Notes: generated by a model not told the origin, from the sequence alone. A stretch of 64,000 nucleotides of DNA from an uncultured Clostridia bacterium (GCA_964441745.1 CAYTYR010000001.1:1-64000), one strand, 5' to 3'. Positions 1 through 58,153 are shown, counted from the first letter of the stretch. Numbers and translations are program-made.

Positions 1-52
1 TGAGTCAGTTTATCCAATACAGTGCTGAGAATGATAAACTAAATATTCTCGG

Positions 53-97
53 TCAGCCTGCAGTGCCCGACCCCGTTACTTCCGACCCCGTTACTTC
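53..97 (-). repeat. Conserved array site with tandem-doubled core (CGACCCCGTTACTTC x2 at 68-82, 83-97)
   Basis: Minus strand reads GAAGTAACGGGGTCG-GAAGTAACGGGGTCGG-GCAC-TGCA-GGC-TGA; same motif at 931, 1591-1620, 3360-3388, 3519-3548. Confidence 0.85.
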
Positions 98-124
98 ATA
101 TCTTTCATAAGTAGCCCTTAATTT

Positions 125-346
125 CTATAATTTCATATTACTATCAATTATTCTGCGAAACGGTTTCTGAACATGATTGGCAAAGGCGTTAAATTCTGTC
201 AGAAAATGAATATATTTATCCAAATCAACTTTCCCCTGGTCCATAAAAGGATTATGCCTATTTTGTTCTATTCGGCGCATATCATCCCTTAATCCTGCGG
301 ATTGAGCCAATTCGCGCCATTCTTGCTTTTCTTTTTCAGTCAGCAT
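125..346 (-). CDS. Small hypothetical protein, likely partner of the adjacent nucleotidyltransferase
   Basis: 73-aa ORF overlapping the end of the upstream NTase gene; TA-like two-gene layout. Confidence 0.65.
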   Translation of the reverse strand: MLTEKEKQEWRELAQSAGLRDDMRRIEQNRHNPFMDQGKVDLDKYIHFLTEFNAFANHVQKPFRRIIDSNMKL

Positions 347-884
347 GATATTTCCTCTTTAATTCCGAATACTTATCCTGCTTGTTAAATGTTTCGAAAT
401 ATTCTTCAATAATCATCCAATCAAGTTGTTTAGCATATTGCTTCATCACGGTTTCAATATCAGTATATTCTCGGTCCTGGCGTTCCGGGTCATTAACCAA
501 AGCTTGCAGTTTTAAACCGATAATATCTTCCGGCCTTACTACCTTAATTTTATATTTGCCATCAAAGATATCTATATTGATTGTTTTCTCTAACATTCTA
601 AGCGATGGACCCCGAAAAGCAAGCAAAAAGTCTATTTCTCCCATAATTTTGACAGGCGAAATATATTGGGCAACATTTTCGCTCTTAAAAGCGCTTTCAT
701 AACCAACTGCTCTTAAAACTTGTTCGATTTTCTTAAGATCCTCTTTATTTACCAAAAAATCTAAATCCACGGTTGCCCGGGAAATACCCAGAGCTCCAAT
801 GGCAAATCCGCCAATAAGCCCATAGCGCACTTTCTCTTCATCAAATCTTTTTATGATTATCCCTAGTACCTTTTCAAAATCCAT
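336..884 (-). CDS. Nucleotidyltransferase-fold protein (AbiEii/DUF2204-like)
   Basis: LIGGFAI...RATVDLDFLV and EDIIGLK...R.DRE..DI motifs typical of this NTase family. Confidence 0.75.
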   Translation of the reverse strand: MDFEKVLGIIIKRFDEEKVRYGLIGGFAIGALGISRATVDLDFLVNKEDLKKIEQVLRAVGYESAFKSENVAQYISPVKIMGEIDFLLAFRGPSLRMLEKTINIDIFDGKYKIKVVRPEDIIGLKLQALVNDPERQDREYTDIETVMKQYAKQLDWMIIEEYFETFNKQDKYSELKRKYHAD

Positions 885-914
885 TATCAAATCCCTTGTT
901 TATTCCAATTGCTA

Positions 915-962
915 TTTTCCATTTCAAGATCTGACCCCGTTACTTCCTGACCCCGTTACTTC
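915..962 (-). repeat. Conserved array site with tandem-doubled core (CTGACCCCGTTACTTC x2 at 931-946, 947-962)
   Basis: Minus strand ...AACGGGGTCAG-ATCT-TGAA-AT-GGAAAA; exact 16-bp tandem. Confidence 0.85.
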
Positions 963-969
963 TGCTTCC

Positions 970-1022
970 CAATAAAGGCCACAATATGCCACCAGCTCTT
1001 TATCCGCAACAATTTCTTGCGT
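970..1022 (-). pseudogene. 5' fragment of a probable DUF3795-like (CGLYC) gene, truncated just before the array site
   Basis: Translates (ACG)QEIVADKELVAYCGLY after an AAGGGA RBS-like sequence, then breaks into the site repeat. Confidence 0.45.
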
Positions 1023-1035
1023 CGCAACAGTCCCT

Positions 1036-1176
1036 TTAAACCTTTTTATACACTACCTTACCATTCTCCCATATAGCTAACGGCCGACCAGTCTCTTTGT
1101 GCCTTTTTATTACTCCTTGAATCGCTTTTTTAAATGCCTCTATAGCTTTTTTCTCTAAAGTTAATCGTTTCTTCAT
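1036..1176 (-). CDS. 46-aa basic protein (MKKRLTLEKKAIEAFKKAIQGVIKRHKETGRPLAIWENGKVVYKKV), partner of the zeta-like ATPase
   Basis: Not in the ORF track; ATG at 1176 after GAGGTG RBS, TAA at 1036-1038; resembles small proteins commonly found after these ATPases. Confidence 0.7.
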   Translation of the reverse strand: MKKRLTLEKKAIEAFKKAIQGVIKRHKETGRPLAIWENGKVVYKKV

Positions 1177-1178
1177 AG

Positions 1179-1550
1179 TCACCTCGCTAATTTTTGAAAA
1201 TTCTTAAATGCTTCTTCATTAACCACTTCTATATCCGCATCCTTACCTTTTGCTATCATAGTATGTGTTGTTTTTGAATTATCAAATAACAACCAGGAAT
1301 TAAACAAAGGCCTATAAAGATTGAAAAAATTATAAATACCCCGGGTGAACCGCCGCCGAACATCTTCAGCTGGTACATCATGACCGCCTTCAGACACTCT
1401 CTCCTTAATACGAGCAATTGCTAATTCTGGATTTGGTATCCAGAGAAAGTAAAGATGCAAGGCATAACCCTTAGCTTTTAAGTGCCTTGCAAAAGTCGTC
1501 TTACCTGATCCATTCGGCCTTGCTATTATATAAACATTCTTAGTTTTCAA
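1179..1550 (-). pseudogene. Zeta-toxin-like / predicted ABC-type P-loop ATPase, internally deleted
   Basis: Walker A ARPNGSGKTT joined directly to GYALHLYFLW...RIKERVSEGGHDVP; the usual middle segment appears missing. Confidence 0.65.
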
Positions 1551-1625
1551 TATACTTCCTCAAATTATCGCCGGCTGTATATTATTAATTACTTTCACGA
1601 TTCAGTGCCTGACCCCGTTATTTTT
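1470..1625. repeat. Exact 156-bp direct repeat, copy 1 (copy 2 at 3398-3553)
   Basis: Base-by-base identity at offset 1928; includes the array site, the 5' UTR and the first ~27 codons of the ATPase. Confidence 0.95.
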
Positions 1626-2477
1626 CGGAACTTGAATATCTTGAGTAACTTGTTTTTCGGGATTCTTGCCTTGATTTTCTGTGTTTTGGGAATTATTATC
1701 TAGTGGCATTGATTGAGAAGTATCTATTTTTTGCTCTGTCGAGTTGCCTAGTTCCGTTTCTGGAATAGATTTATCTTTACTTCCAGCTCTTCTCCTACGT
1801 CCTATTTTAATAATATCTCCGTGTTTAGAAAGAACTCTATCACTTAGCAGTTTTCTTATGCTCTCAACTATTTCATCTTCATCAACTATAACCCCAGATT
1901 TCCTTCTCACTTCTCTTCTAATGGCTGTTAAAGTGGTTTCATGAAAAAGCGCTCTCACTATTGAGCTTGAATGAAGCGATAGGAACTTTTCCCAATATTT
2001 TTCTATTTCATCACCCTTCATCGCTTGATAAGATAAATAATATAGCTTTTCAGCAGATTGAACGACATCGTCACCCAATAGGTTTATGTTAAAAACCAAT
2101 GTATGCTCAATGCCTGTCTTATCAAATGTTAGATGAAAAAGATGCCATTCTGAACCATTTGTTAATATCACCCATGGCAGACCGCTTTGAGAAGCATAAC
2201 TCTCTGCCTGGAAAATATGAGATTCCTTTAAATTAGTATTGGCCGCTTTAGCCTCTATGTAAAATTTCACTTTATCATTGATTTTTATAGCTAAATCTAC
2301 ATATCTCTCTTTGATTTGATGCTCTTTTGTGATATGTTTTAATACATCATATCCCAAAACATCTTCTAAAAACTTCACTATCCTAGTAACGACATCTGCT
2401 TCGTTTAAATCGCGGTCTTTTGCTTCTTTAAACACAGGTATATATTTCTTAATCCCTTTCACAATTGGATTAGCCAT
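1602..2477 (-). CDS. Stand-alone type I restriction HsdR N-terminal-like PD-(D/E)xK nuclease protein
   Basis: NEADV, YVDLAI...YIEAKA, QAESYA and ILTNG motifs; the C-terminus NNGVRH* is encoded by the array site. Confidence 0.75.
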   Translation of the reverse strand: MANPIVKGIKKYIPVFKEAKDRDLNEADVVTRIVKFLEDVLGYDVLKHITKEHQIKERYVDLAIKINDKVKFYIEAKAANTNLKESHIFQAESYASQSGLPWVILTNGSEWHLFHLTFDKTGIEHTLVFNINLLGDDVVQSAEKLYYLSYQAMKGDEIEKYWEKFLSLHSSSIVRALFHETTLTAIRREVRRKSGVIVDEDEIVESIRKLLSDRVLSKHGDIIKIGRRRRAGSKDKSIPETELGNSTEQKIDTSQSMPLDNNSQNTENQGKNPEKQVTQDIQVPKNNGVRH

Positions 2478-2526
2478 AAATACCCTCCTTACATTTTTAA
2501 TTGTTCTTCTAATTGCATTGCCTTTG

Positions 2527-3276
2527 CTATATCAATTCAGCAAAATAACTTAGCCCCTTTAATGAAAACAAATTAATAAATTCTCTGCCAGTATAAGAGT
2601 TTACACGAATATCTTTTGTTCCCACATTATTAACTACACACAAAACAAATTTATCATTCTTTTTAGCTTGTTCAATCTCATTAGCTGTAATGACGAAGCT
2701 CTGGATCTGCCCACTAATACCTTTTACTTCAATATTAATTTCTTTTTCTTTCTTTGTGCATTTGAGATCATATCCACATCTTGCACTTTCTACGGATTTG
2801 ACCATCCAACCATTATCACTATACTTTTTAGTAATGCAGGCAATAGCTGTTTTTTCAACTATTTTGTTTTGTTTGCTACTGCCAAATCCTGCGCCTTTAT
2901 TAACAGCATAATATTTCTCGGTGCCACTGATCTTGATAATTCTATTGAATTGTGAGTCAGAAATACATTTTCCAAACTGGATATCTGTAATACCATAATC
3001 AGCAAGCCTTACTGGATTTTTATAAATCTCTGTCGAATTTACTATATATACCTTCCTCCAGCCTTCCTTTTTCTCTAGCTCTTTAGGTTTTTCTATTTTT
3101 TCAATATTCATATGACCATAAGCAAATCCATTAAAAGAAACAACAATAATATCTGCATTCTTAGCTTGAGTGTAACGAAATCGATTATCGTTCTCATATA
3201 TTCCTTCCCTTAAATATTGTATTAGTTCTTTTTCAGTAAATTCCGTTAGTCCATATACTATTATTTGTTTTCTCAT
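2527..3276 (-). CDS. DUF3883 (NOV-C) PD-(D/E)xK nuclease with a possible EVE/PUA-like N-terminal domain
   Basis: C-terminal VEKTAI...GYDLKC...IEVKG...TANE motif; N-terminal domain assignment is tentative. Confidence 0.7.
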   Translation of the reverse strand: MRKQIIVYGLTEFTEKELIQYLREGIYENDNRFRYTQAKNADIIVVSFNGFAYGHMNIEKIEKPKELEKKEGWRKVYIVNSTEIYKNPVRLADYGITDIQFGKCISDSQFNRIIKISGTEKYYAVNKGAGFGSSKQNKIVEKTAIACITKKYSDNGWMVKSVESARCGYDLKCTKKEKEINIEVKGISGQIQSFVITANEIEQAKKNDKFVLCVVNNVGTKDIRVNSYTGREFINLFSLKGLSYFAELI

Positions 3277-3359
3277 AGCCCCTCCATTTTATCGATATTA
3301 TTACAGGGACTTAGCCTCAACTGCCCTCAACCAGTAAGTTGAGATGGGTTATACTATAT

Positions 3360-3388
3360 ACTTTCAACTTTCAGCGCCTGACCCCGTT
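3360..3388 (-). repeat. Conserved array site
   Basis: Minus strand AACGGGGTCAG-GCGC-TGAA-AGT-TGAAAGT. Confidence 0.85.
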
Positions 3389-3397
3389 TTTTTCTCT

Positions 3398-3553
3398 CTT
3401 AGCTTTTAAGTGCCTTGCAAAAGTCGTCTTACCTGATCCATTCGGCCTTGCTATTATATAAACATTCTTAGTTTTCAATATACTTCCTCAAATTATCGCC
3501 GGCTGTATATTATTAATTACTTTCACGATTCAGTGCCTGACCCCGTTATTTTT
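3398..3553. repeat. Exact 156-bp direct repeat, copy 2 (site plus truncated ATPase start)
   Basis: Identical to 1470-1625; the ATPase frame is cut ~10 bp before the next site. Confidence 0.95.
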
Positions 3554-3902
3554 TAGGGATCTCATCACTCCAATGTTCAGAGTCTTTAAATGGGCCATCG
3601 ACCGAGAGCTGGGATGTTCCATCGACAATTACTACAGCATACCAGTCCTTATTAAATTTTACTAGATCGGCCTCTCCATTTCGCCAGACATCTATTCCAC
3701 CAACAAGAGTCCCCGACACGATATTTTCACTCCGATAAGGCTGCGTCACTGTCATAGTTCCACTAGCCGCAATCAGTGATACTTTATGTGCAGGTATATT
3801 TCTAAAACATGATGGTATTGCGCCCAGTTTAAGCTCTACTGGTTCCCATTCTAACTGCGCTATATTATTAAATTCTCCTTTATATATATATTTTATACGC
3901 AT
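3546..3902 (-). CDS. Hypothetical protein (118 aa from the probable ATG)
   Basis: AT-rich ORF with GGAG RBS before ATG 3902; its TAA overlaps the start of the array site. Confidence 0.6.
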   Translation of the reverse strand: MRIKYIYKGEFNNIAQLEWEPVELKLGAIPSCFRNIPAHKVSLIAASGTMTVTQPYRSENIVSGTLVGGIDVWRNGEADLVKFNKDWYAVVIVDGTSQLSVDGPFKDSEHWSDEIPKK

Positions 3903-4026
3903 TTTGACTCCTTCCAATAGATGGCCTATCTCCCAGTCCAATCTATTATCTTTCAGGGAACTGATCATTATTTTGAGCGAGCTATTTTTTTCCTATACGC
4001 TATACGCCATCCGCTATACGCTATCT

Positions 4027-5286
4027 TTACAGCTCCTCGGGGCTCGCAATGCGGCCAAGAACTGCGCTTGCCGCGGCGACAGCGGGATTCGACAGATACA
4101 CTTCACTCTGCGGATCCCCCATGCGTCCCACAAAATTCCTATTAGTCGTCGCCAGCGCCCTCTCGCCTTTGGCCAGTATGCCCATATGCCCGCCCAGGCA
4201 CGGCCCGCACGTCGGCGTAGAAATAGCCGCGCCAGCATCCATGAATATCTTAAACAGCCCTTCATCCATCGCCTGCCGCCACACTTCCTGCGTCGCCGGG
4301 ATGACGATGAGCCGCACATATTTATGAACTCTGTGTCCTTTGATGACTTCTGCTGCCAGCTCCAGGTCTTCGATACGTCCGTTGGTGCAAGAGCCGATCA
4401 CCACCTGGTCAATATTAACTTTGCCAACTTTGGAGATTGGCTTCACGTTACTTGGCAGGTGCGGGAACGCCACCATTGGTTCCAATTTAGTGACATCATA
4501 TTCCTTAGTTTCCAGATAATTGGCATTTTTGTCGCTTTCGTATGTTTCATAGGGCTCTTGGGCTCTTTTTTCTACATATTTAAGAGTGGTTTCATCCACT
4601 GCCATAATACCATTCTTACCGCCAGCTTCTATGGCCATATTACACATAGTGAACCTGTCTGACATGGGCAGGCCGTCAATAGTATCGCCGCAGAATTCCA
4701 TTGAGCGATAGAGCGCGCCATCTACGCCAATATCCCCGATCGTATGCAGAATGAGGTCTTTGCCGCCGACCCACTTGGGCAGTTTACCGCGATAGATGAA
4801 TTTCATGGCTTCAGGCACTTTGAACCAGCATTCGCCAGTGATCATAACCGCTGCCAGGTCAGTACTGCCGACCCCGGTAGAGAATGCGCCCATCGCGCCA
4901 TAGGTACAGGTATGCGAATCCGCGCCGATGATCACTTCTCCTGGCAGGACAATGCCTTGCTCAGGCAGGAGCGCATGCTCCACACCCATTTCGCCAACTT
5001 CAAAATAGTATTTCAGTTTCTGTTCTTTAGCGAACTCGCGCAGGATCTTCACCTGTTCGGCTGACTTGATATCCTTGCAGGGAGTAAAATGGTCAGGGAC
5101 AAGCACTACTTTGTCCTTGTCAAATACTCTCTTGGCTTTGGCTTTTTTGAATTCGCTGATAGCAATAGGCGCGGTGACGTCATTGCCGAGGGCAATATCC
5201 ACTTTGGCCTGTATCAGTTCACCGGCATGCACTTCATCTTTGCCGCAATGTGCCGCCAGTATCTTCTCGGTAATTGTCATTCCCAT
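4027..5286 (-). CDS. leuC: 3-isopropylmalate dehydratase large subunit
   Basis: [26 protein letters not shown] and CGPCLG aconitase-family motifs. Confidence 0.93.
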
Positions 5287-5360
5287 TTTCAACATACTCC
5301 TTTAGAATTATTATCGTGTATATAGCAACTAATTGTGTGAGTCCTGTCTCGATTGAAACC

Positions 5361-5569
5361 GTGTATCAGTGAACTGGTTATTTTTGTTCGCTCCAGTGTC
5401 GATTTTTAGCGTCAAAGGTCTTGCGTCAACTCGGTGCCGAGAAACTCGCCCCTTGGGCTCAGACAATCTCGGCATCCAGCAACCAGAAGATGCCCTCGTT
5501 GCTTGCAAGCATGCTTTGACTAAAATCGACAAGCTCGCTCAAAAAACAACCAAGTTCCCTGATTAGCAC
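5361..5569. repeat. ~200-nt imperfect rod-like hairpin
   Basis: Arms pair (ATCAG/CTGAT, GTCGATTTT/AAAATCGAC, GTCAAAG/CTTTGAC, CTTGC/GCAAG, GTGCCGAGA/TCTCGGCAT) around AAACTCGCCCCTTGGGCTCAGACA. Confidence 0.75.
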
Positions 5570-5585
5570 ATTAAGCGAAAGGCGA

Positions 5586-5743
5586 GCGCGGCCGCTGAAT
5601 GTCGTGTAGAAAACCTTCGGAAGCTTGAGTTGGCATGGACTCTTTTCCTCCCGCCTTGCGGGAGAACTCAAGCGAGATAGAGAGCGATTTCCTCGCAGGG
5701 GAAATCGACTCGTTTTTCGGAACGACTCAGCGAGACAGCGAGC
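5586..5743. other. Structured intergenic element with conserved termini (GCGCGGCC ... CAGCGAGACAGCGAGC), copy A
   Basis: Same terminal motifs at 8828-8952; internal stems GCTTGAGTT/AACTCAAGC, CTCCCGC/GCGGGAG, CGATTTCC/GGAAATCG. Confidence 0.65.
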
Positions 5744-5758
5744 CTAAAACCTTATGTT

Positions 5759-7291
5759 TTACTTACTTTTTACTGCTTTTGGGCTCAGTAGACGGTTCAC
5801 CGCATTCAGATAAGCTTTGGCGCTGGCTTCGATAATATCAGTAGAAGCGCCTTGCCCAGTCACTACTCTTCCTTTAGCCTCCGCTATCCTGACGATCACT
5901 TCACCCTGGGCATCCTGCCCGCCGCTGACCGCGCGGATCCCGTATTCCAGCAGTTTGCACTTCAGTCCGGTAATGCGGTCAATAGCTTTATAGGTGGCAT
6001 CTACCGGACCATCACCAGATGAAGCTTCCTGGAAAACCTTATCGCCTTTACGCAGGCGGATAGTCGCGGTCGGTATGGTCTGGCTGCCGCTGACAGTGTG
6101 AATATAGTCCAGTTTGTAAACCGGGACCACCTGGGAAATCTCATCCTCAACGATAGCTATCAGATCTTCATCAAAGATCTCTTTTTTCTTATCTGCCAGG
6201 ACTTTGAACCGCTCGGAAATTTTGTTCAAGTCTTGTTCTTTAAAGGTATAACCTAACGCGCTGAGCCTTTGCTTTAACGCATGCCGGCCAGAATGCTTGC
6301 CCAGGACCAGTCCTGAACCCTGCCAGCCGATGCTTTTGGCATCCATGATCTCGTAAGTGGTCTTCTCAGCCATGACCCCGTGCTGGTGAATGCCGGCTTC
6401 ATGCGCAAAGGCATTAGCGCCGACAATGGCTTTATTCGGCTGGACCGGGATACCGGTCAGAGAACTCACCATCCGGGAGGTCTTGTAAATTTCTTTGGTC
6501 TCAATGTCTGTATAGACATTGAACAGGTCTTTCCTGGTCTTGATCGCCATGACGATCTCTTCCAGGCTGGCATTGCCGGCTCTCTCTCCCAGGCCATTGA
6601 TGGTACATTCTACCTGGCGCACTCCGGCAGCCACTGCTGCCAGTGAATTAGCCACAGACAGGCCGAGATCATCGTGACAATGCACACTGATGACTGCTTT
6701 ATCCACATTAGGAACCTTATTGAAAATATTCATGAGCATCACCGCAAATTCAGCGGGAATGCTGTAGCCCACTGTATCCGGGATGTTGACCGTGGTAGCG
6801 CCGGCTTTAATGACTGCTTCTACTACCTGCCACAGGAATTCCTGATTAGAGCGTGCCGCGTCTTCAGCGCTGAATTCAATATTATCACAATAACGACTGG
6901 CATGCTTAACTGCTTTGACCGCAGCATCAAAAGCCTGTTCACGGGTCATTTTCAGTTTATATTTCAAATGTATGTCACTGGTAGCCAGGAATATATGGAT
7001 CCGCGGATGCTTACTGCATTTAACGGCGTTCCAGCAAGCGTCAATATCTTTTTCCATGGCCCGCGCCAGGCCGCAGATCTGCGGGCCTTTTACTTCCTGG
7101 GCAATTAGTTTTACCGCTTCGAAATCGCCTGGTGAACAGATCGGGAATCCGGCTTCGATCACATCTACTTTCAGCTTGGCCAGCTGCCGGCCGATCTCAA
7201 TCTTTTGCGCCGTATTCAGGCTGGCTCCCGGTGATTGTTCGCCATCACGCAGGGTTGTATCAAATATAATTATTTTATTTTTATTATTCAT
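5759..7291 (-). CDS. leuA: 2-isopropylmalate synthase
   Basis: [22 protein letters not shown] motifs; C-terminal regulatory domain. Confidence 0.95.
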
Positions 7292-10125: not shown

Positions 10126-10617
10126 TTATTTATTCCCTCTGGCCATCGCCACAATACCTGTACGCACCATTTCTTTGACGCCGAATGGTTTGACAATTTC
10201 TACGAAAGCCTTAATTTTTTCTTCATTGCCGGTCATTTCAATGATCAATGAACTTGCACCGACATCGACGATCTTGGCGCGGAAAATATTTACGATCTGC
10301 ATGATCTCCAACCTGGAATTTTTATCAGCCGTGACCTTGATCAGGATCAGATCACGCTCCAGGTGCTCAGTTTCCAGGAAATCACTCACCCTGATGACAT
10401 CGACTAATTTATTGAGCTGTTTCTCGATCTGTTCCAGGATCCTTTCATCGCCGCGCACAATAATGGTCATACGGGAAATGCTGGAATCCTCGGTTTCTCC
10501 GACAGCTAAGCTGTCAATATTATAACCCCGGGCACTGAACAGGTTGGCGATACGCGCCAGCACCCCGGCTTTGTTCTCAACTAAAACACTAATTGCATGT
10601 CTCATTACAACCTCCAA
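10126..10617 (-). CDS. ilvN: Acetolactate synthase small subunit
   Basis: VENKAGVLARIANLFSARGYNIDSL ACT domain. Confidence 0.95.
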   Translation of the reverse strand: MEVVMRHAISVLVENKAGVLARIANLFSARGYNIDSLAVGETEDSSISRMTIIVRGDERILEQIEKQLNKLVDVIRVSDFLETEHLERDLILIKVTADKNSRLEIMQIVNIFRAKIVDVGASSLIIEMTGNEEKIKAFVEIVKPFGVKEMVRTGIVAMARGNK

Positions 10618-15916: not shown

Positions 15917-17137
15917 TTATTTTTTCTTCTCTAAGTTAAAAGCTTTATGAATCACTTTCACCGCTTTCTCCACATTTACATTTTTGATCACGCAGGAGAT
16001 CTTGATCTCGCTGGTTGAGATCATTTCAATGTTAATGCCGGCCCGGGCCAGGGCGCTGAACATTTTGCTGGCAATACCGACATGCGAACGCATGCCCACG
16101 CCAACGATAGAGATCTTAGCCACATTTTTATCATGGATCACTTCTGTCGCCCCTAATTCCCTCTTTATTTTATCCATGACCTCCAAGGTCTTGGGCAAGT
16201 CCTTATGGCTCACGGTAAAAGAAATATCATTCCGGCCGTCAGCAGCGCTGGACTGGATGATCATATCCACATTAATGCCTTTGGCTGCCAGCTCGGTGAA
16301 CATGCTGGCGGCGACACCAGGCTTATCAGGCAGATCAATGATCGATATCTTAGCTTGGTTTTTATCACTGGCAATACCTCTGACAACGACATCTTCCATT
16401 TTACTGACCTCCCTGGTAATAATCGTTCCCTTCTCGTGAGAAAAGGTGGAACGCACATGAATATCAACATTAAACTTTTTTGCTACTTCGATCGAACGGG
16501 CCTGCATTACTTGTGCGCCTAATCCAGCCATTTCCAGCATCTCATCATAGGAAATCACATCCAGCTTCCGGGCATCGTGCACAAGACGCGGATCAGTGGT
16601 ATAAACTCCCAGTACATCCGTGAAGATCTCGCAGACATCTGCTTTTAATACCGAAGCCAGCGCTACTGCCGTCAAGTCTGACCCGCCGCGGCCCAGCGTG
16701 GTAATATCGTCATCTTCGTTAATTCCCTGAAACCCGGCAACCACGGCAATATTGCCTTTTCTTAGTTCTTTCCTGATCTTATTAGTATGAATGTGCACAA
16801 TTTTAGCCATATTATGAACCCTGTCGGTTAAGATACCGACTTGGGCACCGGTCAAGGAAATCGCCTTATATCCTTTATCCTTGAGCGCCATCGCCAATAA
16901 AGCAATGGACATCTGCTCTCCTGTAGAGAGCAGCATATCCATTTCCCGGTCATCCGGATCAGCAGTGATTTTTTCCGCCCAGGTGATCAGGTCATCAGTC
17001 GTATCCCCCGGCGCGGAAACTACTACTACTACTTTATTTCCCGCGTCCCTCGTCTCCATAACCCGTTGGGCAACATTTTTTATTTTGTCCGCATCTGCGA
17101 CGCTGGAACCGCCAAATTTCATCACTACTAAACCCAC
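15917..17137 (-). CDS. lysC: Aspartate kinase
   Basis: KFGGSS, TLGRGGSD, two ACT domains. Confidence 0.96.
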   Translation of the reverse strand: MGLVVMKFGGSSVADADKIKNVAQRVMETRDAGNKVVVVVSAPGDTTDDLITWAEKITADPDDREMDMLLSTGEQMSIALLAMALKDKGYKAISLTGAQVGILTDRVHNMAKIVHIHTNKIRKELRKGNIAVVAGFQGINEDDDITTLGRGGSDLTAVALASVLKADVCEIFTDVLGVYTTDPRLVHDARKLDVISYDEMLEMAGLGAQVMQARSIEVAKKFNVDIHVRSTFSHEKGTIITREVSKMEDVVVRGIASDKNQAKISIIDLPDKPGVAASMFTELAAKGINVDMIIQSSAADGRNDISFTVSHKDLPKTLEVMDKIKRELGATEVIHDKNVAKISIVGVGMRSHVGIASKMFSALARAGINIEMISTSEIKISCVIKNVNVEKAVKVIHKAFNLEKKK

Positions 17138-53193: not shown

Positions 53194-53905
53194 TTATGGC
53201 TCTATCTTTTCTTTTTCAATTTTCTGCAAATATTCTTTAAGTTTCTTTGCGTCAGCCTTAGCGATGATTAACTCTCTGACCGGTAAGCCACTGGTTTGAC
53301 CAGTGGACTCATAAAGGTTTGACCTTGCATAATGCGTAAGATAGGGAGAGGAAGTAAAATCCTCCTAATTGGCTTGGCGGACAAGACCAAAAAGAAGAGG
53401 ATGTATGGAAGGATATCAGAGTTTAGCACATTCGAGGTATGATTGTAAATATCATTTAGTGTTTGTGCCGAAGATGAGGCGGAAGAAATTGTAGGGGAAG
53501 ATACGGGAGTATCTGAAGGGAGTGTTTCACGAGTTGGCGCGACAAAAGGGAAGCGTGCGATAGCCGTGGCGCGGCATTTTTGGGAAACGGGAGAATTTTC
53601 TGGGAGAGAATCTGTGGGCGCGAGGATATGCTGTATCGACCGTTGGGTTCGAACTGGGAAAAGTGAACGCCTACATTGAGAGCCAGGAAAAACTTGAGTC
53701 GGCTCAAGAAGCGAGAAAATTCTAAGAAGACGCAAAGAGGGAAATAGCCGTCTTTGAGACGGCTCATATCCGTCAAGCCACCCTCTTTGAGGGTGCGTTC
53801 TGACTTGTAAATGCCACCAATGTATGGTTGGTATTCATCATGGGCTTCAGATTCATTATTTATACCTATTGGATCCCAATTCCCAGAGTATTTCATAAAT
53901 ATCAA
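53194..53905 (-). pseudogene. Cassette ORF (WDPIG...DEY type) split by an IS200-type relic
   Basis: Removing 53273-53804 restores ...YIGGIYK|LIIAKADAKKLKEYLQKIEKEKIEP*. Confidence 0.7.
53273..53804 (+). mobile_element. IS200/IS605-family element, 532 bp, non-autonomous (decayed tnpA at 53405-53725)
   Basis: MEGYQSLAHSRYDCKYHLVFVPK..*..ELARQKG / LWARGYAVSTVG; end hairpins; inserted 3' of TAAC, ends in TGAC, no TSD. Confidence 0.9.
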
Positions 53906-53927
53906 CCCATATTTTTTATTTTTATTA

Positions 53928-53999
53928 GTCTAACATAGAAATCAGCGGTGGACGCCGCGCGAAGCGCGGGTTACGTCCGCTGGATTGACCTTGTTAGAT
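53928..53999 (-). repeat. attC site
   Basis: R'' ATCTAAC ... R' GTTAGAC; CAGCGG-GACG-CCGCGC / GCGCGG-CGTC-CGCTG arms. Confidence 0.9.
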
Positions 54000-54024
54000 T
54001 GTTTTTCTAAAATCTTTTCTATAT

Positions 54025-54465
54025 TTATTTTTTTTTTATGATCAAGGTTGCTAAAAGGTATGGTGCTAACCCAAAAAGCACAAAGAACCCTCCTAATAAA
54101 CTACATAAAATGATTGGGGCATAAACTACAAATGGGCTATCTATCATAGATTTTCTTGATATTGGATCAAATAATACCATAACGTTATCCCCTGGTGAAT
54201 ATCCGGATGGAAACATGGCAACCGCGGATTTGAAATATATTAGTTTACCCTGAGGAGAGCGGAACTGTATTATTGGGGCGATACTGAATCCTTCTGACGA
54301 ATCAATATAATCTAAATCAACCACAATTCCGGGAATTCGAATTGCTCTATTCTTGTGCTCCATGCGTTTTGACTGTAAATAAATCCCTGCTGCGATAACC
54401 ATGAGTCCTATAAGTACAGATGGCAAAGCGATTCGCAATGAAGGAATCCATTTTTTTATATCCAT
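54025..54465 (-). CDS. DUF3592-like membrane protein (cassette)
   Basis: Two TM flanking G.VV...PIIQF...Y.PGD.V.V.FDP. Confidence 0.7.
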   Translation of the reverse strand: MDIKKWIPSLRIALPSVLIGLMVIAAGIYLQSKRMEHKNRAIRIPGIVVDLDYIDSSEGFSIAPIIQFRSPQGKLIYFKSAVAMFPSGYSPGDNVMVLFDPISRKSMIDSPFVVYAPIILCSLLGGFFVLFGLAPYLLATLIIKKK

Positions 54466-54474
54466 ATATTTTTA

Positions 54475-54550
54475 ATCTAACATCGGAAATCACCCGCTTT
54501 TTCCCAGAGCGAAGCGGCGGGAAAAAGTCGGGTGCATTGACTTGTTAGAT
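54475..54550 (-). repeat. attC site
   Basis: R'' ATCTAAC ... R' GTTAGAT; CACCCG-CTTTTTCCC / GGGAAAAAG-T-CGGGTG arms. Confidence 0.92.
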
Positions 54551-54553
54551 ATT

Positions 54554-54925
54554 TTATTCTATTTCTTTTAATATCGTTTTAGTCGTTTCTTTAAGTAATG
54601 GGATTTTATTCTTACATATTTCATAAATAGCTTCAGCATTGATATCAATGTAATGATGCGTGATAATATCTCTTAATCCTTTTACTTTTTTCCATTCAAT
54701 TTCAGGATATTGGCGTAAAATAGAATTTTCTGTGACTTTATCAAAGTTTTTGAGGCCTTCGCCAATTACGATTAGTTGCATACAAATAGAATCTAATTTT
54801 TCCATTCCCTCGGGAGTATTTGTAAAATCATTGACGCTTTCAATTGAGTCAAACCGTTTTAAAATAAGTTCAATGGCATGGTATATTTGTTGCAATATTT
54901 CTTTGGCAAGATCTTTGTCATACAT
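54554..54925 (-). CDS. HepT-like (DUF86) HEPN RNase toxin
   Basis: GLRDIITHHY Rx4H motif, IGEG, PEIEW. Confidence 0.88.
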   Translation of the reverse strand: MYDKDLAKEILQQIYHAIELILKRFDSIESVNDFTNTPEGMEKLDSICMQLIVIGEGLKNFDKVTENSILRQYPEIEWKKVKGLRDIITHHYIDINAEAIYEICKNKIPLLKETTKTILKEIE

Positions 54926-55208
54926 AAACAGCCTCCTTATCTATCCGTTTTTTCAAAAATGAATTCATTTTTTCTCTGTAACTGACAACATCTACGGGGG
55001 TATTTAAACTTTCTTCCAAGCCTTGTTTAATGCCGATAATCTCAAATAAGTCTTGTTTTGTCAGAACCACAACAATGTCAATATCACTATTGTCATTCGC
55101 TACATCTCTAGCAACTGACCCAAAAACTCCAAGACGTTCTATGTGGTATTTGTTTTTGTTTTCTTCTTTGAATTTTCTTAAATATTTTATTACTTCTTTA
55201 CGATTCAT
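54918..55208 (-). CDS. MntA-like minimal nucleotidyltransferase antitoxin
   Basis: FGSVAR...SDIDIVV, VDVV. Confidence 0.9.
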   Translation of the reverse strand: MNRKEVIKYLRKFKEENKNKYHIERLGVFGSVARDVANDNSDIDIVVVLTKQDLFEIIGIKQGLEESLNTPVDVVSYREKMNSFLKKRIDKEAVYV

Positions 55209-55246
55209 TATCGGGCCTCCTATATTTTGTTAGATGTTTTTATTCT

Positions 55247-55849
55247 TTATTCCGCAGCTCCTATTGCTTGCATATATGCAAGAGTAGGAACCTGCGCTAT
55301 GGATGCAATACCTACACCCATTCCAGATTCATAAAGTTTAATCATATTTCTGGCGGTTTTTGTAAAAACCTCTATGCATTCCTTGTCATCGCGAGTCATG
55401 GAAATTGCGTATTGCATAAGAGCTAAAGCAGAATAGACAGCTTGCTGTTCCGTGCCATGCGGAGGCAGCCAAGTTTTAATGGTTCGTTCTATTGAGCCTT
55501 TTGCATAGAATTCCCCTGCAAATTTGATATTTCCTTGTGTTACGCTGGTAGTATACTGAATAACATCATCTAAATTAGCCTTTTGAAAACAATTAGTATC
55601 TTTATTTATATCGCTCTCCACAATTTTTGTTAAGGCGCCTATGGCCATATTGGCACTTACATTATTTGGGTAGCCTAAATTATAAATCATTTTTGCCTCA
55701 TAATAAGTCCATAGTCGTATATAGTCAGGAGTAGGAATTATTGAAACATTTTTATTTACATTTACGCCAACTTTATTGTTGTCATTAAAGATAATTTCAA
55801 ACGACAACACCTTTTTTCTTCCAATGAGTGCTTCAAGAAAACCCATCAT
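55247..55849 (-). CDS. Hypothetical protein (cassette)
   Basis: 200-aa ORF with AGGAGG RBS just after the attC. Confidence 0.75.
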   Translation of the reverse strand: MMGFLEALIGRKKVLSFEIIFNDNNKVGVNVNKNVSIIPTPDYIRLWTYYEAKMIYNLGYPNNVSANMAIGALTKIVESDINKDTNCFQKANLDDVIQYTTSVTQGNIKFAGEFYAKGSIERTIKTWLPPHGTEQQAVYSALALMQYAISMTRDDKECIEVFTKTARNMIKLYESGMGVGIASIAQVPTLAYMQAIGAAE

Positions 55850-55871
55850 TTCCTCCTTTTTTTATTTTTAT

Positions 55872-55949
55872 ATTTAACACCCGAAATCAGCGGCTTTGCC
55901 GAAGCCCGAAGGGCGGCGGGTAACAGTCGGGTGTAGTGCGTCGTTATCT
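55872..55949 (-). repeat. attC site
   Basis: R'' AGATAAC ... R' GTTAAAT; shares GAAATCAGCGG with other array attCs. Confidence 0.85.
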
Positions 55950-55957
55950 GGGTTTAT

Positions 55958-56650
55958 TTATAATTCTGAGCCTTTACCCCAGTTGCATTTTTGACACAAG
56001 GTTTGTAAATTATTAATGACTGTTTCTCCACCTTTTGAAAATGGTTTTATATGGTCAATGTGCAAAAATATATTTCTGTGAGTTGCTGGGCTTCTTCCAC
56101 AATAAACACATTTAAAGTTATCTCTTTGCAATACCCGAACTCTTAATTTGTATGGAATTTCTCTCTTGTTCTTCTGTGGTATTGTTTTTGTAATTTTAGT
56201 ATTTTGGATTAGTGTTTTCTGTTTTGGTTCAGGAGATTCATTCTCTTTGAATTCTATGAATTTTAGGCAAGCATTTACCCAGCCATTGAATCGAGTTTTA
56301 TATGTTGTATAAGAATATTTAGGGCTTGAGTTGTCCCATTCATTTTTTGATGGTCTATGACCAAGTTCTTTCCATACTCGAGCTAACTCATCGAATAGTT
56401 CTTTATCAGTGATTTGAATCTTTGATATTTTGGGTCGTGGTTTCAAATTACAGCCGATTGAATCCAATGCTTTTTGCCATGAGCCAAACATATTTAGTAC
56501 CGAAGTTCCTTTGCAATTGGATGCAATTTTGTCAAATTCGTGTCTTGTAAAACGAGTATAGTTGTAGTGTTTTGCGACACGCTTTAGTTCATTGATAATT
56601 ACATCTTTTTTTATTTTATTTATTGGGTCCCGATTTATTTGATATTTCAT
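55958..56650 (-). CDS. HNH endonuclease with two homing-endonuclease-associated repeats (first cassette)
   Basis: FGSWQKAL / FNGWVNAC repeats; RDNFKCVYCG...HIDHI.P.SKGG...NLQTLCQKCN. Confidence 0.85.
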   Translation of the reverse strand: MKYQINRDPINKIKKDVIINELKRVAKHYNYTRFTRHEFDKIASNCKGTSVLNMFGSWQKALDSIGCNLKPRPKISKIQITDKELFDELARVWKELGHRPSKNEWDNSSPKYSYTTYKTRFNGWVNACLKFIEFKENESPEPKQKTLIQNTKITKTIPQKNKREIPYKLRVRVLQRDNFKCVYCGRSPATHRNIFLHIDHIKPFSKGGETVINNLQTLCQKCNWGKGSEL

Positions 56651-56662
56651 ATTATTTTTTTC

Positions 56663-56681
56663 ACATAACAATTATTATACG
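56663..56681 (-). other. Putative attI recombination point (G/TTATGT)
   Basis: GTTATGT 13 bp upstream of the first cassette ATG; matches the complement of that cassette's R'' (AGATAAC) at 6/7. Confidence 0.55.
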
Positions 56682-56720
56682 ACCTTCGTTTTTTGTGGTA
56701 CTTGTATAGTTGTTTAATTG

Positions 56721-56749
56721 AAAATACCTTAATTTTTAGCGGTTGTCAA
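56721..56749 (-). promoter_or_regulatory. Putative cassette promoter Pc, TTGACA-N17-TATTTT
   Basis: Points into the array from the intI-attI spacer. Confidence 0.55.
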
Positions 56750-56833
56750 TAAAAAAAAGTTTGCCTGATTTCTCTTTTTATGTATAATAGCACAAAATAC
56801 GTATTTCGCTTTTCATAGGGGCTCAATATTATC

Positions 56834-58132
56834 ATGTTAGATACCATTCTTCCAGAATTCCAACAATTCCTTATAGACAAAGACTTTGCCTCTCAAAAAC
56901 ACGCGCCTTTTTATGCCCGCTGGGTAAGCAAGTTTATCTCTTTTTCCAATACAGCTAACGAACTTGACCCCGAAAAAAGAATCGAGATTTTTATCACTCA
57001 TTTGTTAAAAAACTTTAATACCCCAGATTGGCAGATTGATCAAGCTCGCAATGCTTTAAAACTCTATCTTTACCATTTTAACGGAAATGACCTTTCAAAA
57101 GTATCTGCTGACAAAAAAGAGTTTAATCCGGTTCAAGATTATCCGGAAATAGAGCGGTCTTTACGCAGCTCTATGAGACTAAAGCATTATTCATATTAAA
57201 CCGAGCGGTCTTATATTGGCTGGGCTAAAAGATTTTTTGATTACACAGCCAAAGTAAAGGGAAATAATTTCAATCATAAAACTCTATCTTCATCTGAGGT
57301 CAGAGATTTCCTGAGCAATTTAGCGATAAAACAGAGAGTCTCTTCTTCTACTCAAAATCAGGCCTTTAATGCTTTGCTCTTTTTATTCAGAGATGTGCTT
57401 AAAATCGAGCTTTATGATTTAAAACAAACCGTGCGGGCCAAGCGCGGGCAAAAACTGCCGGTAGTCCTGTCTCACGAAGAAGTGGCGCAGATATTTGAAC
57501 ATACTGCCGGGAAAGACCTGCTTCTTTTACAGTTGCTTTACGGAACAGGTATGCGGCTGATGGAACTGGCGCGTTTGAGAGTGCAGGACATAGATTTTAG
57601 TTCAAATCTGGTATTTATACGCAGCAGCAAAGGAGACAAAGACCGGACAACTATTCTTCCTGAAGTTGTTAAAAACAGCCTAAGAGAACATCTACAGGAA
57701 GTAAAAATCCGGCATGAAAAAGACTTGCGCGATGGTTATGGGGAAGTCTGGCTGCCTTTCGCTCTGGGAAGGAAATATCCCAACGCTGCTAAGGAATTTG
57801 GCTGGCAATATGCTTTCCCTTCAGCGAAGCTTTCTATTGATCCGGTCTGCGGCAAAATACGTCGTTTTCATATCAGCGAAAAAACCATTCAGGTGGCCAT
57901 GGCTGAAGCAGTTAAAAAAGCAAACATAATCAAACATGCTACGGTACATTCCTTAAGACACAGCTTCGCCACGCATCTATTGATGGCCGGGGTTAATATA
58001 CGCCATATTCAGGAACTGTTAGGGCACAGCCATGTGGAAACTACTATGATTTATACCCATGTGATACGCAATATTTCTAACATCCCTCAAAGTCCTCTCG
58101 ACAAACTCTATACAGAAGCAAATCTTCAGTAG
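56834..58132 (+). pseudogene. intI: Integron integrase interrupted by one in-frame TAA (57197-57199)
   Basis: HYSY*TERSYIGW...STQNQAFNALLFLFR; GMRLME, KGDKDR, IntI insertion (LPFALGRKYPNA..WQY.FPS), HSLRHSFATH, LGH, TMIYTH. Confidence 0.93.
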
Positions 58133-58153
58133 GTCAAATACTATTAAAAGCTT

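Follow-up and report, generated by a model that had tools for sequence, protein, structure and literature searches.

Genes for RAYT-like transposases that are bounded by terminal inverted repeats were described in 2013 as TIRtrons, and the enzymes encoded by these elements are termed TIRYT (PMC3733652). Many of the repeats that flank TIRYT genes carry the sequence GGGGWSAS, and they occur as singles, dimers and clusters (PMC3733652). Subclass 2.1 of the TnpA_REP proteins, which comprises long proteins with Bac_DnaA_C or helix-turn-helix (HTH; HTH_23, HTH_28) tails, probably corresponds to TIRYT (PMC6006769). The repeats are reported to have no fold of their own (PMC3733652, PMC6006769). Few papers in the literature searched name TIRYT or TIRtron elements, and the available parts of these two state neither a mechanism nor a role for them. 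Here we consider a window of 64,000 nucleotides, bases 1-64000 of contig C1 in the 2.07 Mb, 39-contig genome of an uncultured Clostridia bacterium (GCA_964441745.1), whose first 4 kb carry repeated minus-strand copies of the motif AACGGGGTCRG among genes of defence and toxin-antitoxin (TA) type. A first-pass annotation had read the motif as the site that punctuates a candidate non-integron array of cassettes, and the array as a site-directed gene-capture platform. Our analysis indicates that the motif is very probably the ~28-33-nt terminal repeat of the TIRtron/TIRYT family of single-strand DNA transposases, and that the first 4 kb form a nested pile of modules downstream of an aconitase-family gene, each headed by a lone repeat with its AAC side outward.

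All seven copies named in the first-pass annotation are exact matches at the places given, and all lie on the minus strand (67-77, 82-92, 931-941, 947-957, 1609-1619, 3378-3388 and 3537-3547). An eighth match, with one mismatch, is found at 4868 within the aconitase-family gene. When up to one mismatch is allowed, these 8 matches compare with a mean of 1.01 in shuffled sequences, and 0 of 100 shuffles reach 8. The improved consensus, read on the minus strand, is AACGGGGTCAG-N3-YTGAA-N4-GAAA, with a length of ~28 nt. Five copies had been said to extend beyond the core. Four of them are indeed full ~28-nt sites (AAC at 941, 1619, 3388 and 3547), scoring 33-47 bits with a matrix built from foreign copies; the fifth is a partial copy, and the extended pattern is replaced by the consensus above. 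In all, three copies in the window are partial, namely tandem stutters at 957 (16-nt unit) and 92 (15-nt unit) and a left half-site at 77. The sequence GCACTGCAGGCTGACCGAGAA that follows this half-site holds a degenerate inverted half-site, and the contig ends 66 nt beyond this group of copies. The array is truncated by the assembly, as base 1 of the window is also base 1 of C1. G+C content is 0.33-0.38 across 1-4000 vs 0.45-0.53 beyond.

The sequence GGGGTCAG, present in every full site, fits the published GGGGWSAS. The motif matches the TIRtron end known since 2013 and is not a new kind of site. The link to HUH enzymes of the RAYT type, which the first-pass annotation had suggested, proved to be right, given the GGGGWSAS fit, Y1 genes directly behind sites and an intact element with inverted repeats. 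The genome holds eight matches to Y1_Tnp (PF01797). The Y1 genes at C1:182315-183262 and 186341-187126 begin ~60 nt past sites at C1:183329 and C1:187193, and a TTGACA-17-TAAAAT promoter lies between each of these sites and its gene, with the site abutting the -35 box. The full Y1 protein, of 315 aa, matches PF01797 with E 4.6e-13, carries the motifs NHYHLLL and RYIHLNPV in its translation, and scores 81.3 bits on the NCBIfam model NF047646 (REP_Tyr_transpos; cut-off 80). The DnaA equivalog model matches its residues 223-311 (E 8e-09), and a weak match to Bac_DnaA_C (PF08299; E 9.1e-05, 22.8 bits) falls under the Pfam cut-off of 31.5. Four open reading frames (ORFs) flanking foreign sites have a similar DnaA-like C-terminal match, up to E 1.1e-10. 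A sequence search of the PDB with the 315-aa protein gave 0 matches at E 0.01.

An intact TIRtron is located at C8:5330(+)/6350(-), where a 316-aa copy of the transposase lies between inverted sites in 1,021 bp. This and six foreign elements make up the seven complete elements measured, all of which have inverted ends and measure 1014-1022 bp between outer edges; none of the seven showed a target-site duplication. An eighth inverted pair of the same type occurs on contig C19 of G003, a relative from the same genus. The two C1 Y1 copies have the repeat upstream only. The repeat thus takes three forms, as autonomous elements with inverted ends, as short inverted doublets resembling miniature inverted-repeat transposable elements, and as lone ends, and both the repeat family and its link to Y1 genes are directly supported. 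At C22:25848-26915 there is a 334-aa Y1 gene, after which comes an inverted end, duplicated in tandem, that belongs to another subtype (reverse complement ATTGGGGTCAG); this suggests a second TIRtron subfamily in the same genome.

The genome-wide scan proposed with the first-pass annotation was carried out with the matrix of foreign copies, which yielded 20 sites and, on the reversed genome, none; exact copies of the core number 16. When partial copies are included there are ~22 sites in ~9 clusters (C1:1-3.5 kb, C1:183-197 kb, C5:71.6 kb, C5 end, C8:5.3-6.4 kb, C8:46 kb, C9 end, C11:40-44 kb and C33), and 15 of these 22 fall within the genome's lowest GC decile. Neighbouring genes include those for AbiEi/AbiEii, RhuM, IrrE-HTH, Cas4/DUF2779, PD-(D/E)XK, TIR, MmeI-type and Eco57I-type proteins. 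The copies at C1:183-197 kb are all co-oriented, and the island at C1:179-197 kb has almost no counterpart in the five relatives of the genus. In a test of strand choice by GC skew, the sites of the C1 and C5 clusters were on the G-rich strand and those of the C11 cluster on the C-rich one, a pattern from few independent clusters that amounts to no rule. A site or a related end lies within 300 nt of five contig ends (C1 start and the ends of C5, C9, C22 and C26), the C22 copy being of the related ATTGGGGTCAG type and the C26 copy degenerate. Assembly tends to break at these repeats, and their copy number is therefore probably undercounted.

Among the five other genomes of the genus four have the site, and none of 35 further genomes searched does; the collection holds nine genomes of the window's own phylum. 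A stricter 27-28-nt pattern retrieved 60 stretches with 70 sites from public genomes. Most are in records titled Candidatus Omnitrophota, and other titles name Desulfobacterales, Geobacter, Dehalococcoidia, Elusimicrobia, Planctomycetota, Nitrospirae and Gammaproteobacteria. The gene downstream of these 70 sites is co-oriented in 34 cases, opposite in 13 and unassignable in 23. A sample of one such phylum has the site in 14 of 301 genomes, at 1-12 copies per genome. One genome of this sample (G218) carries 12 sites, of which ten form five inverted doublets with starts ~47 nt apart, a REPIN-like expansion that is absent from the genome studied here. In metagenomes, the matrix detected at least 190 sites at at least 120 loci. 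Among the matches listed, pairs of adjacent sites separated by 0.4-5 kb number 14 in direct and 8 in inverted orientation, and 76 of 262 oriented sites from metagenome and genome loci have a Y1 gene behind them. Direct arrays that hold small cargo are found elsewhere, as with DUF6398 and RHH-ParE genes in the locus L056.

Comparison of copies places breakpoints at the edge of the repeat. In all five comparisons, homology begins 0-6 nt before AAC: between the copies of the ATPase module, between the leaders of the nucleotidyltransferase (NTase) module in the present genome (G000) and G003, and between the Y1 copies at 187193, at 192402 and in the C8 element, each set against that at 183329. Among the matches listed from metagenome and genome loci, 50 of 91 non-Y1 pairs that share the site and downstream DNA differ upstream. 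Cut genes often lie upstream of the sites. The 5′ end of the ATPase gene precedes the site at 3388 and that of a DUF3795-type gene precedes the copy at 947, while ~20 nt of the NTase gene in G003 and ~30 Y1 codons before 192243 are further cases. The DUF3795-type gene is intact in G004, and its cut form is also found in G002, G003 and G004.

The module of the NTase and its partner, ~830 nt long, is present in all five relatives (six species including G000), with four different left flanks and five different right flanks; the left context is common to G000 and G002. In G001 and G003 its homology starts at the A of AAC, and in G005 it begins with the right part of the site only, as TTATCA joined to GTCCTTGAAATGGG. 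The right end is sharp, 1-3 nt past the stop codon of the partner gene in all genomes. In G003 the same site and NTase leader directly follow the aconitase-family gene, and the module sits between two conserved genes where G000 carries another module. Gene content changes at the site between related species, the point for which the first-pass annotation had proposed an alignment of strain variants. Discrete modules that start at the repeat, and the pattern of breakpoints, are direct observations.

Partial copies provide a second view of the joint. There are 38 partial upstream copies at 104 distinct sites, and 10 of the 38, from several genomes, end after AACGGGGTCA; the next commonest ending with at least 6 matched letters occurs 3 times. 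These endings point to a joint at TCA^G. Stutter copies include 4-12 nt of flank, for which weak conservation is seen among members of a subfamily and also at either end of complete elements, and so the start of the repeat is probably a few bases before AAC. The same stutter occurs at the ends of true TIRtrons, and on that account the window sites look like substrates of the same machinery.

The explanation that we hold with modest confidence is that a TIRtron repeat family has given rise to nested lone-end modules moved one-endedly by TIRYT acting in trans. As to mechanism, we rate as about an even chance a process of movement or recombination whose one end is set by the repeat while the other is left open, with the joint at TCA^G and the enzyme supplied in trans. 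We infer a pairing of this enzyme with this site, in which TIRYT made elsewhere in the genome would bind the repeat and make two cuts in one strand, one at the outer edge and one at TCA^G, which falls between positions 10 and 11 when the count starts at AAC. The cut strand would then be transferred to another copy of the repeat or to a look-alike, so that the repeat moves along with the DNA adjoining it on the inner side. Each such event would retain the incoming repeat and its cargo and sever the DNA upstream, and incomplete or repeated events would leave short tandem partial copies. Repeat-fixed, one-ended movement would explain why left ends are fixed, why upstream genes are cut, why the modules stand in nested order and why stutters occur.

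Several observations weigh against this explanation. No assay of the action of any TIRYT on its repeat is reported in the available parts of PMC3733652 and PMC6006769. The NTase module is followed by a site in G000 only, its right end being free of the repeat in 4 of 5 contexts, and inspection by eye found no conserved hairpin or motif at that end common to G000 and the relatives. In G003, G004 and G005 it is not the site that heads the ATPase module but another sequence, which bears a hairpin, and it follows that modules also move without the site. At C11, all four copies run opposite to their genes and to the GC skew. The 88 ORFs that flank sites in foreign genomes are mostly ordinary genes, with Y1_Tnp in 6 of the 88 and few defence genes. 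The count of 50 in 91 pairs overstates events, because many loci come from one study and kin and samples are not independent. Bases 1470-1625 are exactly repeated at 3398-3553 in direct orientation 1,928 bp apart, and the order of segments across this 156-nt repeat rests on the assembly; Logan contigs of two runs from different samples of the same study (X1, possibly the source run, and X2) break there. The circular module junctions for which the first-pass annotation had proposed a search, or any other circular or excised form, were not seen in these contigs.

A possible but doubtful alternative is that the repeats are passive, REP-like copies scattered by TIRYT into tolerant intergenic DNA, the island and its modules having been built by homologous recombination, by other mobile elements or by the integron. 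The sites are intergenic and flank mostly housekeeping genes in other genomes, both orientations occur, and a site is lacking from the ATPase module of three relatives and from the right end of the NTase module. Short inverted doublets are clearly mobile on their own; a family of 274/342-bp doublets has 6 copies in 6 contexts among the matches listed. However, passive scattering would not lead one to expect homology that starts at the site edge in five of five comparisons, nor upstream neighbours that are cut genes (5′ fragments of ATPase, NTase, DUF3795-type and Y1 genes). No filled and empty pair differing by the bare repeat alone was met, in a survey that included no exhaustive search for one. 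Furthermore, REPs of Pseudomonas avoid recently acquired DNA (PMC3390384), in contrast to the concentration of the present sites in the lowest GC decile.

We consider it unlikely that TIRYT and its repeats form an HUH-driven gene-cassette system, in which TCA^G nicks in direct repeats would yield single-strand circles that re-enter at repeats or TCA look-alikes, a route by which defence and TA arrays would be built, reshuffled and carried between phyla (Omnitrophota, Desulfobacterota, Elusimicrobia-labelled lineages and others). Its strict form, with TIRYT nicking two direct sites alike and freeing a circle with one site that re-enters elsewhere, appears rather improbable. Such a system would fit the shared orientation of all seven window copies and of all copies at C1:183-197 kb, the sites on both sides of the NTase module in G000, the preferred joint after TCA, and direct arrays with small accessory or TA cargo such as that of L056. 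It would also fit the 1,928-bp spacing of the 156-nt repeat, across which a linear order, a tandem and a 1,928-bp circle are equally compatible with the contig graph. Against it stand the cut gene fragments adjoining outer site edges, the right ends without a site in 4 of 5 NTase contexts, the 14 direct and 8 inverted neighbours that reveal no clear rule among the matches listed, the inverted C11 cluster and the lack of a circle junction in Logan contigs.

The same facts bear on the wider claims of the first-pass annotation. With ~22 copies in ~9 clusters a dedicated platform for capture is not supported, and the inverted C11 copies, the mixed orientation of neighbours and the missing circle junctions do not favour one. 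The picture of cassettes punctuated by the site is likewise not supported: module right ends mostly lack it, upstream genes are often 5′ fragments, and in other genomes the sites mostly flank ordinary genes.

The window also contains a small true integron (53900-58150). Its attC sites at 53.9 and 54.5 kb fold with z -4.95 and -5.54, and 0 of 200 shuffles are as good; a third attC-like stretch at 55.87-55.94 kb has a z of only -1.59. By comparison, four spacers within 1-4000 give z -0.99 to +0.71 and show no attC fold, in agreement with the earlier statement that attC hairpins are absent from this part. Tyrosine recombinase matches (PF00589) number three in the genome, and none is adjacent to the array; the nearest, at 57464-58063, is ~53 kb off and belongs to the true integron. 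The three attC positions are ~53928-53998, 54474-54550 and 55873-55936, and a GTTAGAT at 56836 lies close to where the integrase region begins. Two ORFs make up the split integrase, a SAM-like one of 121 aa (56834-57199) and a catalytic one of 252 aa (57374-58132), and the cassettes include a HepT/MNT pair (54554-55208) and an HNH endonuclease (55958-56671). Adjoining the integron at 53435-53551 is a short Y1_Tnp remnant, a 64-aa frame with one internal TAG.

Short hairpins of the form TCAACC-GCGTA-GGTTGA and variants, sometimes set between YTAAC-like and GTTR-like boxes, occur at window 3300-3345 (minus strand), at C3:68776, C11:40540, C26:22369 and C31:16670, and in the loci L030 (~16560-16600) and L031 (~10150-10200). 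Hairpins of this type head the ATPase module in G003 and G004, and they may be short attC-like sites.

That the array is an assembly artefact, in which repeats at a contig end have joined strain variants into a chimera, is very improbable. The window does start at a contig end, five contig ends have a site or related repeat nearby, and the exact 156-nt repeat breaks the contigs of both runs, between whose segments depths differ. Against this, all junctions outside the 156-nt repeat are spanned with 0 differences in X1, and most are also spanned in X2, and the sites and modules are also found in five related genomes and, further afield, in hundreds of foreign contigs. In X2, cover is missing at 1240-1416, and the differences in depth between segments are not interpretable. 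One X1 contig links 3547 to 4003 and omits the 140-aa gene, with merely 25 nt on one side, too weak to count. At 16-55 of the window, 40 nt have ~35x word depth in X1 vs ~9-11x for their neighbours, and a 1,624-nt contig runs past the window start; an unassembled repeat or mobile element probably abuts the array there. Finally, a role as a regulator site of defence genes or as a structured RNA, with no part in DNA movement, would suit the excess of co-oriented over opposite downstream genes (34 vs 13) and the position against the -35 box of the Y1 promoter, but has next to nothing left to recommend it given that the motif forms the inverted ends of a 1.02-kb transposase element, that stutters and breakpoints are DNA-level events, that unrelated phyla carry the motif beside unrelated genes, that six sites folded as DNA do no better than shuffles (z -0.53 to +0.78, with 54-149 of 200 shuffles folding equally well), and that an Rfam search of 1-6000 at E up to 5 returned no family for the motif and only two chance-level matches to unrelated eukaryotic RNA families.

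The features of the first 4 kb and the conserved flank are collected in Table 1.

Table 1. Repeat copies, cargo genes and conserved flank at the start of the window (window coordinates).
Feature	Position	Strand	Remarks
Tandem partial site copies (two)	67..97	-	15-nt unit AAGTAACGGGGTCGG; GCACTGCAGGCTGACCGAGAA follows the last copy, which is a left half-site
Partner gene of NTase, 73 aa, no family match	125..346	-	Kept beside NTase in 5/5 genus relatives
Nucleotidyltransferase, 184 aa, AbiEii / NTP_transf_5 / DUF2204-like	336..890	-	PF08843 E 2.4e-09
Full site, AAC at 941	914..941	-	Heads NTase module
Stutter, 16-nt partial copy, GAAGT + AACGGGGTCAG	942..962	-	Upstream of full site 914..941
DUF3795-type gene, 5′ fragment (..KEIVADKELVAYCGLY..)	963..1020	-	Cut at site; sequence comparison with relatives
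ORF downstream of ATPase, 48 aa, no family match	1036..1182	-	
Zeta-toxin-like P-loop ATPase, 123 aa	1179..1550	-	In-frame loss of residues 25-90 (66 residues) vs 191-aa G003 gene
Full site, AAC at 1619	1592..1619	-	Heads ATPase module; HsdR_N frame terminates inside
HsdR_N protein, 291 aa, type I restriction HsdR N-terminal (PD-(D/E)XK-like) domain	1602..2477	-	Domain match
NOV_C (DUF3883) protein, 249 aa	2527..3276	-	Domain match
Full site, AAC at 3388	3361..3388	-	Heads NOV_C/HsdR_N module
Exact 156-nt duplicate of 1470-1625: site (AAC 3547), leader and first ~50 ATPase codons	3398..3553	-	Cut by next site
Hypothetical gene, 140 aa	3546..3968	-	Stop codon overlaps AAC of site
Separate 29-nt repeat GCTCGCTCAAAATAATGAYSAGTTCCCTG	3954..3982	-	At head of 140-aa gene
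Aconitase-family large subunit (LeuC-like), conserved flank	4027..5295	-	96-97% identity in G003, G004

The cargo list agrees with that of the first-pass annotation except for the ATPase gene, which is the 123-aa form without residues 25-90 of the relative's 191-aa gene. In view of this in-frame loss the encoded ATPase is probably inactive. The ATPase gene and the 48-aa ORF were considered as one frameshifted gene, and this was ruled out, as the loss is in-frame and the 48-aa ORF does not align. Two cargo genes had been said to end in or at a site, and both do so: the HsdR_N reading frame passes through the site and ends in PKNNGVRH and a stop codon, and the stop codon of the 140-aa gene lies over an AAC. 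The NTase protein, used as a query against metagenomes, retrieved no relative. The separate 29-nt repeat GCTCGCTCAAAATAATGAYSAGTTCCCTG has 8 copies in the genome (window 3954-3982, C4:96499, C5:70522, C7:90165, C7:91468, C9:68991, C12:44461 and C30:1383), most of which have an extra ~40 nt conserved upstream in two versions. The module headed by its C4 copy stands where G003 has the NTase module. This repeat may be another mobile-element end or an RNA.

The locus offers three handles for further work: a defined ~28-33-nt candidate substrate, a predicted TCA^G joint, and natural examples of cargo behind a lone repeat, which include an AbiE-like NTase, a Zeta-like ATPase, restriction-type nucleases and ParE. 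If TIRYT does move the DNA adjoining one repeat, this would be a further route by which defence islands are assembled in uncultured bacteria with small genomes, and this route would differ from integrons, Tn7-like elements and phage satellites. Should the enzyme not do so, the repeats are still useful markers of recombination breakpoints in these genomes.

Integron cassettes, which are mobilized by IntI through attC x attI recombination, resemble the present array in that small, promoter-poor accessory or TA genes lie in one orientation with a repeated site between them. Unlike them, the array has no attC fold and no adjacent tyrosine recombinase, its site heads a module instead of closing it, and its modules are often cut. 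One-ended rolling-circle capture by IS91/ISCR elements and Helitrons is similar in having one fixed end, a variable other end and adjacent DNA that is carried along. These elements use Y2-type Rep-like HUH enzymes and have distinct ori and ter ends, whereas the enzyme beside the present sites is a Y1 protein of RAYT type. The IS200/IS605 family (IS608, ISDra2) shares the Y1 HUH enzyme and, we infer, a cut at a fixed distance inside a recognized end and events on one strand. Its ends are different subterminal hairpins without inverted repeats and its TnpA of ~150 aa has no HTH tail, whereas here the ends are inverted repeats without a hairpin and the 315-aa protein has an extra domain.

Like the REP/REPIN-RAYT systems of E. 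coli and Pseudomonas, the present family has a Y1 relative flanked by its own repeat and inverted doublets as mobile units, and its enzyme passes the NCBIfam RAYT model (81.3 bits vs cut-off 80). In contrast to classical REPs, imperfect palindromes that carry a GTAG or CGTC tag, the repeat has no palindromic hairpin (z -0.5 to +0.8) and no GTAG tag, its copy number is low (1-13 per genome), and its sites lie in recently acquired low-GC DNA. No relevant report of RAYT or REPIN elements in combination with cargo, toxin-antitoxin systems, defence islands or gene cassettes was among the matches listed by a literature search. The closest relatives are the TIRtrons themselves, with which the elements share a RAYT-like Y1 HUH gene of ~315 aa with a DnaA-like or HTH tail, and GGGGWSAS terminal inverted repeats that flank the gene and also occur singly, as dimers and in clusters (PMC3733652, PMC6006769). 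In the available accounts (PMC3733652, PMC6006769) the repeats are flanks of a transposase gene and a dispersed family, whereas the lone copies described here head defence and TA cargo in co-oriented nested arrays, the modules are discrete across species, and stutters point to a TCA^G joint. The site and the enzyme family were thus already known, and what looks new is the presence of lone repeats at the head of defence and TA cargo other than a transposase, the occurrence of discrete repeat-headed modules common to several species in different contexts, and the preferred joint of the stutters.

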